Of a stretch of 22,249 bases of DNA, positions 3,480-22,025 are shown in pieces; position 1 is the stretch's first letter; every line of letters begins with the position of its first letter. Made by a program: the position numbers and the translations under genes. The stretch covers positions 1-22,249 of the forward strand of contig WBXG01000026.1 of the NCBI GenBank assembly GCA_008932965.1, read 5' to 3'. A model generated the notes under the pieces. The model searched no databases and was not told where the DNA came from. It saw only the letters and a program-made list of their open reading frames with translations. This DNA comes from Verrucomicrobiota bacterium (GTDB lineage: Bacteria; Verrucomicrobiota; Verrucomicrobiia; Chthoniobacterales; UBA6821).

Positions 3480-4463
3480 ATGAAAAAATCAGCTGAGGGC
3501 CCAACGCTTGTTGAGGTCATTTGCAAAGCTCTTCGTGGTTTACCAAAAGAGGATGAATACCTGGTAGGTATTTCCGGTGGAATCGACTCGGTTGCCTTAC
3601 TCCACCTGCTGCTGGAGGGAGGTTATAAAAATCTTATCGTTGTTCATTTCAATCATCAACTACGCGGAGCAGACTCTGATCAAGATGCTCTCTTTGTCAC
3701 CAATCTTGCCAAGGAGCTCCGGCTTCCTTGTGAACTTGGAACCGAAGATGTTCAGGCCCGCGCACGGCGCGCTAAGCTCTCCTTGGAAACAGCAGCACGT
3801 GAAGCCCGGTATGAATTTTTCGGAGCAGTGGCTCACAAGCGTGGTGTGAAATCGCTACTACTAGCACATCATGCTAATGACCAAGTAGAGACCTGTTTTT
3901 TTAATTTCCTTCGCGGAACAGGATCTGCAGGGCTTGCTGGAATGTTACCACGTTCCGAGAGAAAAATTGGAAAAACGATCCTAACTGTAGTACGCCCCCT
4001 ACTTTCTATTTTTAAGGAGACATTAGGAAACTATCTCACCCAAAGGACTATTCCATTTCGTCACGATGCTACTAATGATTCTTTAATTCCGATGCGCAAT
4101 CGCTTGCGTCATCAATTACTTCCTCTACTCGACGACATCATAGGACCAACCTATCGCACCGCAATTCTTCGCACAGCAACGATTCTAGCAGCTGAAGATA
4201 ATTATTTGGAGAAGCTAGCGGCTCCATGGGCTACCCATGGATCATTAAACATTGAGGAAATGAAGATTCTGCCTCTTGCACTACAACGCCGTGTGGTTCA
4301 TGCATGGCTAAGAATGCATCATTTTTCTGACGTTGGTTTTGTGGAGGTAGAACGTGTGCTCTCACTCTTGAATCCTAAAAATGCTGCTCAAATAAACCTT
4401 CCGCAATGTCGACATGCCTATCGCTCCCAGGGAATGATTGAAATTAAACCTGATATTTCATAA
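3480..4463 (+). CDS. tilS: tRNA(Ile)-lysidine synthase
   Basis: PP-loop motif VGISGGIDSVALLHLL, then HFNHQLRG and LLLAHHANDQVET. The length of 327 aa fits TilS. Confidence 0.88.
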   Translation: MKKSAEGPTLVEVICKALRGLPKEDEYLVGISGGIDSVALLHLLLEGGYKNLIVVHFNHQLRGADSDQDALFVTNLAKELRLPCELGTEDVQARARRAKLSLETAAREARYEFFGAVAHKRGVKSLLLAHHANDQVETCFFNFLRGTGSAGLAGMLPRSERKIGKTILTVVRPLLSIFKETLGNYLTQRTIPFRHDATNDSLIPMRNRLRHQLLPLLDDIIGPTYRTAILRTATILAAEDNYLEKLAAPWATHGSLNIEEMKILPLALQRRVVHAWLRMHHFSDVGFVEVERVLSLLNPKNAAQINLPQCRHAYRSQGMIEIKPDIS

Positions 4464-4480
4464 TAATTGTATTCCATACT

Positions 4481-5593: not shown

Positions 5594-5666
5594 GCATCGT
5601 TGGATAAGAGGCTTTGATGATTGAGGAACATGGATGCAAGACCTTCCAATAATTGTAAAAAGAGCT

Positions 5667-5708
5667 TTCCGTCTTTCGCAGTAGATTAGTATGATATATG
5701 CGGGTTAA
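5667..5708 (+). repeat. Right-end fragment of the repeat family, abutting copy A. It may be the tail of a decayed copy that reaches back to about 5600.
   Basis: ttccgtctttcgcagtagattagtatgatatatgcgggttaa aligns with the right end of copy A (cttccgtagtagatcggtgtgaaatatgcgggttaa). It shares TTAA 5705-5708 with copy A. Confidence 0.6.
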
Positions 5709-5888
5709 CCCGGATATTTCATACTGATCGTAACGAGGAGGCCGCGAAGGCTGATGGGGTAAGGCGAGCGATGAAGTCTGACGACGGCTGTATGAGTACA
5801 TACTGCCCGAGGAAGACTTCGAGATCAACGCAGCATCCATCTGGCTTCCCGGCTTCCGTAGTAGATCGGTGTGAAATATGCGGGTTAA
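5705..5888 (+). repeat. Repeat family copy A (short form, 184 bp), MITE-like with 26-bp terminal inverted repeats
   Basis: The left TIR is 5705-5730 (ttaacccggatatttcatactgatcg). The right TIR is 5863-5888 (agatcggtgtgaaatatgcgggttaa). TTAA sits at both ends. The copy is homologous along its length to 8162-8346 and to parts of 11626-11901, 18285-18428 and 21754-22025. Confidence 0.9.
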
Positions 5889-7474: not shown

Positions 7475-8131
7475 TTAAAAAACCAACATTGCTCCTTGTG
7501 CTTTCTTCCACATTTCAAGCTGAGAGGGAGTTAAAACCTTCAGCATCGCAGCGGCATGTTGCAAGCGATTTTTTCTTAGGGCGATGATCTGGCGATGGTA
7601 GTTCAACTTTCCCTGATTTGCCTTGAGGTTAATAGCAGCTGCTTTCTTGTTAGCATCATGGGCGAGAGCAGTAATCTTTTTTTTCTGCTGCTCACTCATT
7701 CCTAAAAGTTGTTGTTCGGAAGGAGCTGTGAGCATTGTTCCCCCAAGCACTTGTCGCTCGACCTCACGAAGACGTCGACGCTGACGAGAATTTAAAAGAG
7801 CCATGACTCGTTCGTTATAAGTCACTCCAAGATGGTCTAACTCGACTTGTAATCGGGCAGTATCTGAGGAGGCTTTCCATCCTGCCTCCGTGATTTTCAT
7901 TGCTGCAGCACGATAATCATTACGCAAACCTCCAATAATGCTGCGTTGTAGCGAGGTTAAATGGAGATCCTTCTCCACATGCTCGAGACTGACAAGGAGA
8001 GGAAGGGAGCCGGGATTCTCTTTTTTAGCCTCATACGTCGTGATAGAATCAGCTCTGACACCCGTTACTACAGTGAGGTACCCGCTCATCATGAGCAGAA
8101 AAAAGGAGCGTTTGAATAGTGAGATCATCAT
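7475..8131 (-). CDS. Periplasmic LTXXQ-motif protein (Spy/CpxP-like)
   Basis: The N-terminus has a signal peptide (MMISLFKRSFFLLMMSGYLTVVTGVRA). LTxxQ-like motifs recur (LTSLQ, LNSRQ, MSEQQ, LTPSQ) in a basic, helical protein of 218 aa. Confidence 0.5.
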   Translation of the reverse strand: MMISLFKRSFFLLMMSGYLTVVTGVRADSITTYEAKKENPGSLPLLVSLEHVEKDLHLTSLQRSIIGGLRNDYRAAAMKITEAGWKASSDTARLQVELDHLGVTYNERVMALLNSRQRRRLREVERQVLGGTMLTAPSEQQLLGMSEQQKKKITALAHDANKKAAAINLKANQGKLNYHRQIIALRKNRLQHAAAMLKVLTPSQLEMWKKAQGAMLVF

Positions 8132-8161
8132 ATTAAAAATGTAATAGCTCTTGAGTTGTTC

Positions 8162-8346
8162 CTTAACACGAATATTTCATACTAATCATACCGAGGAGGC
8201 TGCGAAGCTAGATGGGGTTAGGCGAGAGATGAAGTCTGACGACGGCTGTGTGTGAACACACTGCCTGAGGAAGACTTCGAGATTAATGCAGCATCCACTC
8301 TTGCTTCCCGGATTCCGTAGGTGATTGGTATGAAATATTCGGGTTA
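8162..8346 (+). repeat. Repeat family copy B (short form, 185 bp)
   Basis: The sequence runs ttaacacgaatatttcatactaatca ... ggtatgaaatattcgggttaa with TTAA at both ends. It is colinear with copy A but carries many substitutions, some of them compensatory in the internal stems. Confidence 0.9.
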
Positions 8347-8424
8347 ACATATGAGGAAACTACCTCAAGATTGAAATCTCTACTCTAACATGGAAGTGGA
8401 ATCACAAAACAAAAAAAAGTGATC

Positions 8425-8462
8425 ATTAACCCGCATATTTCATACTGGTCGTGACGAAGAAG
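8425..8462 (+). repeat. Solo left-end fragment of the repeat family
   Basis: ttaacccgcatatttcatactggtcgtgacgaagaag matches the first ~37 nt of copy A (ttaacccggatatttcatactgatcgtaacgaggagg). Similarity then stops. Confidence 0.7.
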
Positions 8463-8475
8463 ATTGGAAAAACTG

Positions 8476-9969
8476 TTAAACGATTCTTGAGCTAATAGAA
8501 CCATCTTCAAATTCTGTCTGAAGGGTTGCCCCTGGACTCCAGTTCTTTGAGGAGCTTACCACGGTACCGCTGAGGTCTCGAGTAATAGTAAATCCGCGTG
8601 CCAGTGTTGCTCGAGGACTCAGAGCAGCCAAGGAAGAACGTAAATTTTCGATACGTCCACGAATGAGTTCGAGTCGGTGATGAAGATCATACTCCAACTG
8701 CTTTTTATTGGTCGTGTAGCGCTGTTGAGCTTGGAGAATGACATGGCGTGGATGATGCGAGCGCAAGCATGCGGAGGCCCGCTCTATTTGAAATCTGGCC
8801 TCTTCACACCGACGTTGAATAGGATTCTCTAATCTCTGCTCAAGATGATCGATACGTTGTTGTACTTCGGAGAGAAACCGTTCTGGAGCACGAAAGAGAA
8901 TGGTATTTTCGAGCCTCCTTGTTTCACTAGAACGTTGCTCCCATGAGCCCGTTGTCTCCCGAACAATACGTCTTAGGAGCGATCTTGCTTGTTCGAGCAA
9001 AGCGATACTATCTGCTGCAATAAGCTCTGCTGCTGCACTGGGAGTCGGTGCTCGTAGATCAGCAGCAAAATCACTCAGAGTAAAATCGATCTCATGTCCT
9101 ACTGCACTCACTATTGGAAGAGAACTTGCCACAATCGCTCTGACGATCACCTCTTCGTTAAATTCCCACAGATCTTCCAAACTACCTCCCCCACGAGTAA
9201 GAACAATGAGATCGAGGGGACCCAATGCCAACGAATTCAACTCTTCGATGGCTCTAGCAATCTCACCAGCAGCTCCTTTTCCTTGAACTCGTACAGGATA
9301 AATCACCACCTGCAATCCGGGATGGCGCCGGTGAAGAACCTTGAGAAAATCAGCAAGTGCTGCTCCCGTAGGGGAAGTCACAACACCAATACGCTTTGGA
9401 AACTTTGGAAGTGAACGCTTCCGAGAAGGATCAAATAATCCCTCTCGAACCAGTTGTTGCTTGAGAGCTTCCAAGCGCGCTTGTAAAAGACCTTCTCCTT
9501 TGAGTTGGACGAGACGCACGAGGAGCTGATACTGACCACGTGGTTGATAAACAGTTACCTCCCCATGCACTTGCACCGCTATTCCATCTGCTAGAGATAA
9601 CGGAGGCATCATTGCTGCAGCACGCCCAAAAAGCACGCAGGCGATCTGAGAATCACTATCTTTTAGAGTAAAATAGTGATGTCCGGAGGATTGCTTACGA
9701 TAATTGGAAATTTCTCCCTCCACCCAAACGGTTCCAATTCCCTCTTCTAGTAACCGAGCTACACGCTTGGTCACTTGACTCACTGTCATGATCCTAGGCA
9801 CGAGGGGTGTTTGAGGGAGCGTCTCTCCTACTGGTTCTCCCTTTGCTAGAATTATTTTTTTAGTCCGAGGTGCTCTTTTTTCACGGGGTATAAACGAGAC
9901 TTCCTGAAGAGGCCCCATAGAAAAACTAAGCTCTCCTTGTTTTAAAATCTGGTTTGTTTCCTGCATCAC
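8476..9969 (-). CDS. xseA: Exodeoxyribonuclease VII large subunit
   Basis: MTVSQVTKRVARLLEEGIGTVWVEGEISNYRKQSSGHHYFTLKDS is the OB-fold signature, followed by the VVTSPTGAA catalytic region and a long coiled-coil C-terminus. The true start may be an internal Met (MTVSQV..). Confidence 0.9.
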   Translation of the reverse strand: MMQETNQILKQGELSFSMGPLQEVSFIPREKRAPRTKKIILAKGEPVGETLPQTPLVPRIMTVSQVTKRVARLLEEGIGTVWVEGEISNYRKQSSGHHYFTLKDSDSQIACVLFGRAAAMMPPLSLADGIAVQVHGEVTVYQPRGQYQLLVRLVQLKGEGLLQARLEALKQQLVREGLFDPSRKRSLPKFPKRIGVVTSPTGAALADFLKVLHRRHPGLQVVIYPVRVQGKGAAGEIARAIEELNSLALGPLDLIVLTRGGGSLEDLWEFNEEVIVRAIVASSLPIVSAVGHEIDFTLSDFAADLRAPTPSAAAELIAADSIALLEQARSLLRRIVRETTGSWEQRSSETRRLENTILFRAPERFLSEVQQRIDHLEQRLENPIQRRCEEARFQIERASACLRSHHPRHVILQAQQRYTTNKKQLEYDLHHRLELIRGRIENLRSSLAALSPRATLARGFTITRDLSGTVVSSSKNWSPGATLQTEFEDGSISSRIV

Positions 9970-11625: not shown

Positions 11626-11901
11626 TTAAATATTTCTTACCGATTGTGAAGAGGAGATTGCGAAGGCTGATGAGGCACCACCGGCGGTCGAGAAACCGCG
11701 GGGGAGACTGCCCAGAGTTGCAGGCTCTTTGAGGCAGCCCTGAAAGGGCGAGACAAGTGGGAGCGAGCGAGTCAACGCAGACATCTGTTTTGACGCAGGG
11801 CTCTATGAGTCCCTACTCTCCAGGTTAAAATATGAGTCTAACGCAGCATCCATTTGACTTCTCGGCTTCCGTAGTAGATCGGTATGAAATATGCGGGCTA
11901 G
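11626..11901 (+). repeat. Repeat family copy C (long form, 276 bp). The left TIR is partly deleted and the right end is flanked by CTAG.
   Basis: The left end is ttaa-atatttcttaccgattg and the right end is ccgtagtagatcggtatgaaatatgcgggctag. The copy carries an extra GC-rich module of about 85 nt (about 11673-11757) that is shared with copy E. Confidence 0.85.
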
Positions 11902-16268: not shown

Positions 16269-16324
16269 AGAAAGAATTCTACTAATTTTACATTAATAAT
16301 AGAAAGATAGAAAATAAAAGTGCA

Positions 16325-16367
16325 AAGCGGATATTTCATACTGATCAGGATGAAACATCCGGGCTAG
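16325..16367. repeat. Miniature derivative of the repeat family (the two TIRs only, forming a hairpin)
   Basis: The sequence is aagcggatatttcatactgatcaggatgaaacatccgggctag. The arms 16329-16339 and 16350-16360 pair at 10 of 11 positions. The right flank is CTAG. Confidence 0.7.
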
Positions 16368-17598: not shown

Positions 17599-17632
17599 GA
17601 ACCCGGATATCTCTATGAAATACCTGGGTTAG
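17599..17632. repeat. Miniature, degenerate derivative of the repeat family (TIR-only)
   Basis: gaacccggatat-ctct-atgaaatacctgggttag joins left-TIR and right-TIR cores back to back. It lies between the PAP2 start and the stop of the thioredoxin-like gene. Confidence 0.5.
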
Positions 17633-18231: not shown

Positions 18232-18533
18232 GATAAAAAAGTTGATGTTACAGTTACACTACCTAGAAGCGAGACGCAATAGACTTAACCCGGATATTTC
18301 ATACTGAAGTGTCATGAGGCGCCGTGCAAAGCTTATTAGTGCAAGGCGGGCGAAGGATTGGGATGCCGGGCTGTATGTCTCATACTGCCCAAATCACAAT
18401 TCGAGACCAACGCAGTAATGATGAGCTTTGCACAAGCGAATTGACTCATAAGTTTTGACACCCGAGCGAGGAAAAAGCAGCAGGGGAAAAAGGGACGTTG
18501 ACTCATAAAGGATGACACCGGCAACTAAGTAGG

Positions 18534-19676
18534 ATGCCAATGTCAAAAACAATAGCAAAAGAGATGCTGCCTCGGCTGAGACAGCGATATACAATACGGG
18601 GAATGGAAGGGAAAAGACGCCTCATTACCGAAGTTTGCGAGCAATGGGAATACAGTCGTAAACATGCCATCAAGCTCCTCAATGCGAAAGCTGGCTGGGG
18701 TGGTGATCCTAATAAAAAAAAGGGACGACCGTCTCTTTATGGCGAGGAGGTGGGAAAAGTATTATGGAATCTTTGGAAAGTATCTCAGCAACCATGCGGT
18801 AAACGTTTGGCTCCGATGATAAGCCTGTGGCTTCCTTACTATGAAGAGGATCGGGGTCAATTAAAGAAAACCATCAAAGAGCAATTACTCAAAATTAGTC
18901 TGGCTCAGATAGATCGTCTGCTAGCTCCTCGCAAAGCAAAAGCAGGAGTAAAAGGCCGCTGTGGCACCAAACCAGGAGGGCTCTTAAAAACACAGATTCC
19001 GATCCGTACAAATCATTGGGATGTGACTCGGCCGGGATTTTTAGAAGCCGATACAGTTGCTCATTGCGGAGTATCTTTAGAAGGAGACTTTATTTGGAGT
19101 GTAACCTACACGGACATCTTTAGTGGATGGACAACCAATCGAGCAGTCTGGAATAAAGGTAGTGATGGAATCGTCAAAGCAACTCGTTCAGTAGAGTCTC
19201 TACTTCCTTTTGAACTTCTAGGCTTTGATTCCGACAACGGAAGTGAGTTTTTAAATAATCATCTGGTACGTTATTTTCAAGAGCGTCAGAAGAAGGTTGG
19301 ATTTACTCGCTCTAGGCCTTATCACAAAAATGACAATGCCTATGTAGAGCAAAAAAACTGGACACACGTCCGGCAGCTTTTTGGCTACGATCGTTTTGGA
19401 GATATTGCTTTGCTACCTCTAGCTAACGAGATCTACACAGATATCTGGGAGCCTTTAAATAATTTTTTCAAACCTTGCATGAAGCTTCTGAGCAAAGAAC
19501 GCCATGGAGCTAAAATAAAAAAGCGATATGATAAACCACTCACTCCTTGCGATCGCTTGCTTCAAAGCGAGCACATCACTGAAGAGGTTAAAGAAACTCT
19601 TCGTTGTCAACGAGCCGCTCTTAACCCCCTTAAGCTAGCTCGCAGCTTAGAAGAAAAACTTCGCGCACTGCATTAG
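18534..19676 (+). CDS. DDE transposase with an integrase (rve) catalytic core, ISNCY/IS481-like
   Basis: The N-terminal region is HTH-like (RLRQRYTIRGMEGKRRLITEVCEQWEYSRKHAIKLL). The candidate DDE triad is EADTVAHCG, LGFDSDNGSEFLN and HKNDNAYVEQKNW. Confidence 0.85.
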   Translation: MPMSKTIAKEMLPRLRQRYTIRGMEGKRRLITEVCEQWEYSRKHAIKLLNAKAGWGGDPNKKKGRPSLYGEEVGKVLWNLWKVSQQPCGKRLAPMISLWLPYYEEDRGQLKKTIKEQLLKISLAQIDRLLAPRKAKAGVKGRCGTKPGGLLKTQIPIRTNHWDVTRPGFLEADTVAHCGVSLEGDFIWSVTYTDIFSGWTTNRAVWNKGSDGIVKATRSVESLLPFELLGFDSDNGSEFLNNHLVRYFQERQKKVGFTRSRPYHKNDNAYVEQKNWTHVRQLFGYDRFGDIALLPLANEIYTDIWEPLNNFFKPCMKLLSKERHGAKIKKRYDKPLTPCDRLLQSEHITEEVKETLRCQRAALNPLKLARSLEEKLRALH

Positions 19677-19729
19677 GAGCGAAGTTCAACTCGTCCTACG
19701 GACGACTTGAACTTCGCTCCTAATGCAGT
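19667..19729 (+). other. Long near-perfect hairpin (30 stem positions, 29 paired, one C-C mismatch, 3-nt loop) overlapping the transposase stop codon
   Basis: actgcattaggagcgaagttcaactcgtcc-tac-ggacgacttgaacttcgctcctaatgcagt, checked base by base. The stop TAG at 19674-19676 lies in the 5' arm. No T-tract follows the 3' arm. Confidence 0.85.
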
Positions 19730-19876
19730 TATTACTACCAGCAACGTTAACAAAAATACCATCACCACGGTGTCATGACTTTTGAGGTAACATTCCCACT
19801 TTCCTAGACCCATCGGGTGTCATTTACTTTTGAGGCAATGCGCAAGCCGTAATAGATTTAGTGTGAAATATGCGGG

Positions 19877-19955
19877 TTAACCCGAATATTTCATACCGAT
19901 TCTGCTGCGGCTTGAGAACACCTCATGGCACTTCAGTAGGAAATATCCGGGCTAG
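19877..19955. repeat. Short derivative of the repeat family (79 bp), made of a left end plus an inverted left end, abutting copy D
   Basis: The sequence is ttaacccgaatatttcataccgattc...cctcatggcacttcagtaggaaatatccgggctag. Its right half is the reverse complement of the copy D left end (cccggatatttcatactgaagtgtcatgagg). It shares TTAA 19877-19880 with copy D and ends in CTAG. Confidence 0.7.
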
Positions 19956-21753: not shown

Positions 21754-22025
21754 TTAACCCGCATATTTCATACTGATTCGTCGCGAGGCGCCGCGAATCC
21801 TGATGCAGACCCCACCGGCGGTCGGGAGACCGCGGTGGAGACTGCCCTGGCTTTAAGGGGGCAGCCCTGAAAGGGCGAGACGAGCGGTAGCGAGCGAGTC
21901 AACGAAGGTGATGGATTGTGACGACGGCTGTAGGAGTCCCTACTGCCCGAGGAAGACTTCGAACTTGGGCGCCGTATCTACCCTTGTTTCCCGCTTTACG
22001 CACCAGATTGGGATGAAATGTTTAC
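21754..22025 (+). repeat. Repeat family copy E (long form, about 272 bp), with a degenerate right TIR
   Basis: The left end is ttaacccgcatatttcatactgattcg. The GC-rich module at about 21806-21885 is shared with copy C. The central ggctgtaggagtccctactgcccgaggaagacttcg is shared with A and B. The right end has decayed to ..gattgggatgaaatgtttac. A right-end remnant, ccgtaatgggtttaa, sits just upstream at about 21744-21757. Confidence 0.8.

Follow-up and report, generated by a model that had tools for sequence, protein, structure and literature searches.

The window analysed here is a 22,249-nucleotide stretch of DNA from a Verrucomicrobiota bacterium (contig WBXG01000026.1 of assembly GCA_008932965.1, forward strand). 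An earlier note on this DNA had described two nested stems, kept paired by compensatory changes, in five diverged repeat copies (A to E), and had taken them for a selected secondary structure, either a transcribed non-coding RNA (ncRNA) or a single-stranded DNA (ssDNA) or cruciform form recognised by a protein. The five copies are members of one family of miniature inverted-repeat transposable elements (MITEs) and not free-standing ncRNA genes. Their nested stems are, by the predicted fold, the apex of an imperfect hairpin of ~90 bp that spans the 184-bp element. With moderate confidence, we favour the view that the family is mobilised in trans by an IS1380-family transposase and that its fold-back is selected in the transposing lineage of copies, likely as DNA.

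The sequences with L numbers below (e.g. L088, L184) are metagenome contigs or stretches that were compared with the window. A scan of metagenome contigs for the terminal inverted repeat (TIR) yielded 103 stretches from several different metagenome projects, and nhmmer together with a covariance model located about 100 copies, none overlapping another, within 600 kb of these contigs. A complete copy measures 171-398 bp, typically ~184 bp. The element is non-coding, with no conserved open reading frame (ORF), and the small-ORF reading already set aside in the earlier note is unnecessary. The TIR comprises 16-25 bp, CCCGnATATTTCATAC(TGATC), the left end being TTAA-CCCGnATATTTCATACTGAT and the right end ATCnGTATGAAATATnCGGG-TTAA. 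The TIR pattern has 18 matches in the 22-kb window, where 0.66 are expected by chance, and the repeat survey found inverted pairs of 24-37 nt with 88-96% complementarity. The flank is YTAR at 277 of 356 ends (TTAA 191, CTAG 37, TTAG 29, CTAA 20).

Filled and empty sites could be compared for copy A, copy C and two elements on other contigs. Empty single-TTAA sites were seen in L148, L136, L185 and L187. Comparisons for copy A, for L179 and for the window versus L136 each show one TTAA at the empty site; L122, compared with L151, has TCAA there. For copy A, the single TTAA lies in L185, L187 and L136 between flanks ~100% identical to those of the window, showing that this copy moved very recently with duplication of TTAA. 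Copy C is absent from the orthologous spacer between the DegT gene and the 537-aa gene in L184 and L185, an empty site that was read by eye in a poor alignment. Syntenic contigs of the sister genome (XseA 88% identical) lack both A and C. Among paired MITE ends with non-palindromic flanks, two cases show direct identity and two inverted identity. TTAA is nevertheless regarded as a duplication and not as an extension of the TIR, because of the empty sites and because full-length insertion sequence (IS) copies carry a direct TTAG...TTAG.

New copies were inserted into the TTAA flanking a resident copy, as shown for copy A versus L136 and L185, which suggests that insertion beside resident elements is preferred or tolerated. 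The TTAA at 5705-5708 is common to copy A and to the right-end remnant of an older copy, so that copy A was inserted into the TTAA flanking this remnant; the remnant (5660-5708) is present without copy A in L136, L185 and L187. At 5684-5729 and 19857-19900, a right end, TTAA and a left end abut to give perfect-looking palindromes. Downstream of xseA, L184 (11494-11850) has different, oppositely oriented and nested MITE copies compared with the window (8131-8476), and an extra 392-aa gene at the spot where the window holds copy B. Among close relatives, turnover in this intergenic region has been fast.

A candidate autonomous partner was found in L140, a 2-kb IS with MITE-type ends. Its 478-aa product matches the NCBIfam IS1380 model (NF033539) at 2.6e-99, with 332.7 bits versus a cut-off of 180. 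Six copies of close relatives, each ~2.0 kb (L188-L193), have perfect 16-bp TIRs, CCCGCATATTTCATAG, and 4-bp direct duplications, CTAG/CTAG and TTAG/TTAG. Homologs of the transposase carry PF13701 and PF01609. The IS1380 family of ISfinder is characterised by a DDE_Tnp_1_4/IS1380-type transposase, ends beginning with CC and a 4-5-bp duplication. L140 and L188-L193 have such a transposase, TIRs starting with CCC and a target-site duplication (TSD) of 4 bp. The terminal 16 bp agree between the MITE, CCCGnATATTTCATAC, and the IS copies in L188-L193 and L140, CCCGCATATTTCATAG. Since ends and target are shared, we infer that the MITE owes its mobility to an IS1380-family DDE transposase acting in trans. 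The layout of piggyBac is TTAA-CCC...GGG-TTAA, as in the MITE. The IS1380 transposases serve as the prokaryotic outgroup of piggyBac (PMC10813416). The MITE and the IS copies also have the 4-bp YTAR duplication in common. In contrast to the full-length IS, the MITE has no transposase gene, resembles the IS in only ~30 nt of its left end, and contains the element-long hairpin that the IS lacks. ORFs lying between a left and a right MITE end are mostly housekeeping genes because the MITEs are so dense; only L140 holds a transposase there.

The nested stems were checked by direct reading of the sequence and by folding of 52-54-nt windows, one per copy, from which the apex z-scores derive. The inner hairpin of copy A (5786-5807) reads GGCTGTATG-AGTA-CATACTGCC and is enclosed by an outer stem pairing 5773-5779 with 5814-5820. 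That of copy B (8244-8265) reads GGCTGTGTG-TGAA-CACACTGCC, with an outer stem of 8231-8237 and 8272-8278; the earlier note had placed both one base off, while its positions for the other four copies are exact. Copy D has its inner hairpin at 18369-18389 and an outer stem of 18356-18364 with 18393-18401, including one G·U pair and one mismatch. The outer stem of copy C pairs 11786-11791 with 11827-11832 around a decayed inner hairpin. Copy E retains the inner hairpin (21926-21947), and its outer stem is non-complementary. Folding reproduced the nested stems in A (minimum free energy -22.0 kcal/mol, z -5.1), B (-23.9 kcal/mol, z -4.7) and D (-20.0 kcal/mol, z -4.1). It gave only the inner hairpin in E (z -1.9) and a decayed apex in C (z -1.3), in agreement with the exceptions that the earlier note had listed itself. 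A U·U mismatch is kept in every inner hairpin of the window, with U·C in D-type copies elsewhere, and one or the other is retained in most copies. Copy E is chimeric, as had been proposed, with an L095-like left half and a right half of the GAGCTTGGGCGC type, and chimeras occur elsewhere too (L083:2488, L167:9467).

The two nested stems are not the full structure but only the apex of the element-long hairpin. Folded as RNA, the whole of copy A gives -94.2 kcal/mol (z -9.4) and the whole of copy B -81.4 kcal/mol (z -7.9); folded as DNA, copy A gives -48.4 kcal/mol (z -7.5). The family divides into A-type, D-type, 'T-type' and several other subfamilies, whose interiors are 30-50% diverged and each self-complementary. 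The T-type is the largest cluster (cluster 18), on contigs from a different set of metagenomes. When all subfamilies were aligned together with MAFFT, RNAalifold recovered the terminal stems only, because the interiors cannot be aligned by sequence. Covariation was assessed on per-subfamily sequence alignments and on one covariance-model alignment, with shuffles and slid pairings as controls; the slid controls cover the two sequence-based alignments, and the covariance-model alignment has shuffles alone.

Compensatory double changes exceed the controls and are real. In the T-type alignment (17 copies, 63 pairs), 94.8% of cells are paired and 15 pairs have double changes, versus 7.5 ± 1.5 in shuffles (0/500) and 3-6 with slid pairings. 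The A/D-type alignment (23 copies, 40 pairs) has 90.2% of cells paired and 24 pairs with double changes, versus 16.8 ± 1.7 shuffled (0/500) and 6-13 slid. With covariance model R1 (70 non-redundant copies, 40 pairs) the values are 89.2% and 31, versus 24.5 ± 1.7 shuffled (maximum 29), and further pair types number 104 versus 78.9 ± 3.0 in shuffles. Three or four Watson-Crick types coexist at several pairs, for instance CG 7 / UA 6 / GC 5 in the A/D-type alignment. The inner hairpin states of A (GTATG/CATAC) and E (GTAGG/CCTAC) are bridged by GTATG opposite CCTAC in L184. Of the earlier claim of a selected structure, the covariation stands and selection on structure is likely; the object selected, however, is the fold-back of a MITE and not a stand-alone ncRNA.

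The hairpin also keeps loops that differ between its arms. In all subfamilies the left-arm motif GTRRCGAGG lies opposite the right-arm motif CGCAGTAGA, the latter occurring twice, and AAGGCG lies opposite AACGCAG as a second arm-specific internal-loop pair. In copy A the asymmetric internal loop occurs twice along the hairpin, at 5729-5737 / 5857-5865 and at 5760-5766 / 5826-5833, with a purine-rich left arm (GTRRCGAGG or AAGGCG) and (A)CGCAGTAGA in the right arm. It is the most conserved interior sequence in all subfamilies, and the twice-repeated loop may be a candidate protein-binding site.

The two strands are not equivalent. On the + strand, G·U exceeds A·C by about 4:1 (60:11, 114:26 and, in the 70-copy alignment, 339:87). 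Of 71 copies, 60 fold more stably on the + strand, the mean advantage being 9 kcal/mol, and the RNAalifold consensus is -65.4 versus -51.2 and -15.4 versus -3.4 kcal/mol for + versus -. A fold with DNA parameters also prefers the + strand (-48.4 versus -37.2 kcal/mol).

Several findings bear on the level at which the fold is selected. Singletons occur with similar frequency in paired and unpaired columns (0.31 versus 0.29, and 0.59 versus 0.72). Orientation relative to flanking genes is unbiased, with 12 copies co-directional, 17 antisense and 20 mixed. Neither A nor B has a sigma-70-like promoter or an intrinsic terminator. Rfam 15 has no match in the whole window, and around A and E gave only chance-level hits with E >= 0.03, far below the gathering scores. 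These results speak against an RNA that serves the host at every site, and the discrete ncRNA transcript envisaged in the earlier note is unsupported. They fit better with selection in the line of copies that continue to transpose. A hammerhead, suggested by CUGAUGAG in copy C, was likewise searched for in Rfam, which found nothing. All five copies of the window lie on the + strand, which raised the idea of replication-linked insertion of the ssDNA type; it was rejected as a general rule, since neighbouring copies across contigs share orientation 21 times and differ 17 times.

A mechanism for trans mobilisation with a selected fold-back can be proposed. Only copies able to fold back would yield new copies, so that selection would act on the transposing ('master') lineage, and resident copies would then decay neutrally. 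The fold-back would be a requirement in cis for mobilising a very short element, most likely as ssDNA or extruded DNA. It may juxtapose for the transposase both TIR/TTAA junctions of an element too short to loop. Of the two forms offered by the earlier note, the protein-recognised ssDNA hairpin or cruciform is no less likely than the ncRNA.

Several observations weigh against this mechanism. The window itself contains no IS1380 copy, and the full-length IS does without such a hairpin. Chimeras with poorly paired stems persist (E, L083:2488), and so does L167:9467 with its two 'left' arms. A cruciform that acts on both strands should leave the two equivalent, whereas the + strand is preferred. 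In the T-type the G·U excess vanishes (49:41) once pairs predicted on either strand are pooled. The singletons, drawn from 17-23 copies, may in part represent unsampled subfamilies instead of mutations after insertion.

A strand-specific RNA role is a close second to the DNA role. The + strand would be transcribed, by read-through or from a promoter of an unscanned type, and the fold would work as RNA, either as a substrate of RNase III/RNase E affecting the stability of a neighbouring mRNA or as a binder of an element or host protein. Taken as a whole this is possible but less likely than selection of the fold as DNA. Elements of the bcr1, ERIC and Correia types have been suggested to play an analogous role, and bcr1 offers the precedent of a transcribed element whose structure is kept by compensatory changes (PMC3184786). 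The tolerance of G·U over A·C, the better folding of the + strand and the interchange of pairs among G-C, G·U and A-U speak for RNA. Tandem G·A/A·G pairs (GACGAC opposite CGAGGA) are one way to read the A-type internal loop, and the conserved asymmetric loops resemble protein-binding motifs. However, G·T and G·A pairs are tolerated in DNA hairpins too, and the DNA fold shares the preference for the + strand; with the loss of the T-type excess on pooling, G·U can no longer be taken as proof of RNA. The absence of an Rfam match and of a promoter or terminator in A and B also counts against such a role. Given the unbiased orientation, only about half of the copies would be transcribed in sense, and the stems show no excess constraint on private mutations. 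No RNA role is known in DDE transposition, so that selection of an RNA structure in the propagating lineage is hard to see.

A bolder variant, which we hold to be rather unlikely, is that the element-long fold is a cis-acting single-stranded recognition structure, of ssDNA or RNA, needed by the piggyBac-like IS1380 transposase or a host partner for very short elements. If true, this would be a structure-dependent, strand-specific mobilisation by a DDE enzyme, so far undescribed, and the optional module M1/M2 described below would be an accessory structured domain.

The pairing might instead be a by-product, in that subfamilies were born by fold-back duplication of one arm and mismatches were erased by quasi-palindrome correction or by recombination between inverted copies. 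Arm copying does happen. In L167:9467-9652 an A-type left arm recurs in reverse complement as the right arm, and L173:6177, L139:3321, L106:8702 and L091:3891 share a perfected apex, GGGCTGTA-TGTG-TACAGCCC, from which the U·C/U·U mismatch is gone. Chimeras between subfamilies are common, and most double changes divide subfamilies rather than single copies. In all subfamilies, however, the arms hold different conserved loop motifs, which arm copying would have erased. The U·U/U·C mismatch survives in most copies, and the excess of G·U over A·C is unexpected under mismatch correction. The single-step intermediate between the A and E states and the pairs with three or four Watson-Crick types also speak against it. 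Arm-to-arm copying was therefore occasional, as in L167:9467 and the perfected-apex subfamily, and cannot be the general cause of the pairing, because of the arm-specific loops, the retained mismatch and the + strand G·U bias. Homogenisation of the arms by gene conversion within the palindrome, which the earlier note had named as a possible undoing of its claim, is largely excluded, and we consider the by-product explanation improbable. In the perfected-apex subfamily (L173:6177-6361, L139:3321-3508, L106:8702-8893, L091:3891-4069) the apex is re-registered and the pyrimidine-pyrimidine mismatch removed. In the chimeras (L167:9467-9652, L083:2488-2671 and copy E), some of which join a D-type left to an A-type right half, the two parts meet at the apical hairpin, suggesting that recombination or template switching took place at this spot.

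The remaining alternative, movement as ssDNA by an HUH-type (Y1) transposase with the hairpins as recognition sites, as in REPINs (RAYT) and the PATEs of IS200/IS605, would suit the structure and mismatches conserved amid sequence drift, the strand-specific pairing, the GTAG-containing motifs (CGCAGTAGA) conserved near the right end and the single orientation of all copies in the window and in L151, but is very improbable in view of the true TIRs and duplicated TTAA target, neither of which HUH elements have, the exact match of the ends to an IS1380-family DDE element, the mixed orientation of neighbouring copies across contigs and the absence of a Y1 transposase from the 10 scanned ORFs, a search confined to the window.

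Structured MITEs of this class are already known in bacteria. The bcr1 MITE of the Bacillus cereus group (Okstad 2004; Klevan 2007; reviewed in PMC3184786) has ~155 bp and a structure held by compensatory base changes. Like the Verrucomicrobia MITE it is non-coding, has a TSD and a non-conserved distribution among related strains, and its copies lose stability with time (PMC3184786). In bcr1 the duplication is 5 bp long, the fold is cruciform-like with two hairpins, and transcription has been demonstrated. The Verrucomicrobia MITE differs by its TTAA/YTAR duplication, IS1380-type TIRs, one element-long hairpin and optional modules of ~100 nt.

The ERIC/IRU, Correia (CREE/NEMIS) and RUP elements are similar in being intergenic imperfect palindromes of 100-160 bp with TIRs, short duplications and size variants arising from internal indels; when transcribed, their long hairpins are processed by RNases. 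They differ in that they duplicate TA, have a cognate transposase that is unidentified or IS630-like, and reside in Proteobacteria or Firmicutes, whereas the present family has a 4-bp duplication and an IS1380-family element with identical ends. Substitution patterns in ERIC were reportedly found by Wilson and Sharp in 2006 to be comparable to structure-preserving changes, and Bertels and Rainey are said to have described in 2011 that mutations in one REPIN arm are compensated in the other. The REPIN structure is thought to matter for mobilisation and not for the host. These repeats pair up into hairpins, but REPINs and REP sequences lack the TIR/TSD layout of the Verrucomicrobia MITE and rely instead on an HUH transposase.

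In the literature, no paper was found that links Verrucomicrobia to such a MITE or that describes an IS1380-derived MITE with such a fold. The family is new as far as the searches show. It is very abundant and recently active in uncultured Verrucomicrobia (relatives of Chthoniobacterales), with related subfamilies in several other metagenomes, and is linked to a cognate IS1380-family element by piggyBac-like TTAA-CCC...GGG-TTAA ends. It makes an unusually clean natural data set, with co-varying pairs by the dozen, asymmetric loops that stay conserved and single-step intermediates. It bears on why many bacterial MITEs are element-long palindromes, whether the fold is selected for transposition or for an RNA function. 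For annotation, it teaches that covariation alone does not identify an ncRNA gene. The repeats of this family will confuse ncRNA screens and assemblies of such genomes.

The window contains at least 12 MITE pieces by the repeat survey and the pattern scan (Table 1).

Table 1. MITE copies, MITE remnants and the IS within copy D, by position in the window
Feature	Position	Strand	Description
Solitary degenerate left-end remnant	4444..4471	+	TTAAACCTGATATTTCATAA; repeat D5; conserved in L184-L187
Right-end remnant of older copy	5660..5708	+	repeat family D4; TTAA common to remnant and copy A
Copy A	5705..5888	+	complete 184-bp MITE: TTAA, TIR CCCGGATATTTCATAC, interior, TIR GTGTGAAATATGCGGG, TTAA; 207 bits in covariance-model search
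Copy B	8163..8347	+	complete 185-bp MITE; 181 bits in covariance-model search
Solitary left-end remnant	8426..8475	+	TTAACCCGCATATTTCATACTGGTCGTGACGAAG...; repeat survey and TIR pattern scan
Copy C	11626..11901	+	MITE with truncated left TIR, extra ~105-nt module M1 (11673-11780) and decayed inner hairpin; ends GGG-CTAG
Mini-element, left and right TIR only	16322..16367	+	GCGGATATTTCATACTGATCAGGATGAAACATCCGGGCTAG; repeat survey and TIR pattern scan; present in L184 too
Solitary degenerate right-end remnant	17609..17632	+	ATCTCTATGAAATACCTGGGTTAG; repeat D3; conserved in L184-L186
Copy D, left 154 nt	18285..18438	+	D-type MITE from own TTAA to IS insertion point; holds hairpin 18369-18389; ortholog in L184
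Unrelated IS within copy D	18439..19842	+	ends TTGACTCATAAGTTTTGACACC / GGTGTCATTTACTTTTGAGGCAA; rve-type transposase ORF 18534-19676, 380 aa
Copy D, right 32 nt	19849..19880	+	GTAATAGATTTAGTGTGAAATATGCGGGTTAA; right TIR of the interrupted MITE
79-bp mini-MITE, two ends only	19877..19955	+	seated in the TTAA closing copy D; own end GGG-CTAG
Copy E	21754..~22026	+	chimeric MITE; module M1 (21807-21907); inner hairpin intact; right TIR degenerate (GGGATGAAATGTTTAC)

An optional module of ~100 nt was found only inside MITEs of this family. Its M1 form, present in copies C and E, is placed in the left arm of the MITE. The M2 form (e.g. L130:2166-2255, L179:3432-3526) is a consistently diverged reverse-complement version, situated within the 3' arm of the inner hairpin in several subfamily backgrounds. 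M1 and M2 share a bulged hairpin of different sequence, CCGGCGGUC/GACCGCGG versus CCAGUGCUC/GAGCCUGG, and the complement of M2 bears a C-GUAA-G loop.

Copy D adjoins a transposase gene, and the possibility that it is the structured 5' leader of this rve-type gene, comparable to a bridge RNA or omega RNA, was rejected because the left ends of homologous IS lie ~100 nt upstream of the ORF and because uninterrupted D-type MITEs exist. The uninterrupted copies L088:2102-2288 and L091:2779-2966 continue directly into the sequence of the right part of copy D. Copy D is therefore a MITE split by an unrelated IS, which is flanked by a 6-bp duplication, CAAGCG/CAAGCC (18433-18438, 19843-19848). The sister genome L184 has the same insertion site in copy D, with the IS internally deleted. 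The transposase matches Pfam rve at 5.7e-5, and none of the NCBIfam IS models reaches its cut-off (IS481, 26 bits versus 224). Its family comprises at least 7,996 protein clusters with E <= 0.001, in Verrucomicrobiota, Proteobacteria, Nitrospirota, Fibrobacterota and even metagenome-assembled genomes of methanogens.

A 30-bp inverted repeat, 97% perfect, at 19667-19729 overlaps the 3' end of this transposase ORF. A TAG inside the hairpin ends the ORF of the window ~30 codons early, and homologs read through. The conserved C-terminal motif of the homologs, LRSSRPTxSLH, is encoded by the hairpin, which may be conserved at the nucleic-acid level.

Inside ORF 414-956, a degenerate TIR-like sequence at 450-481 shows 78% complementarity to 5698-5729, and the sister genome has conserved it. 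The match may be due to chance, or the coding sequence may have taken up an old remnant.

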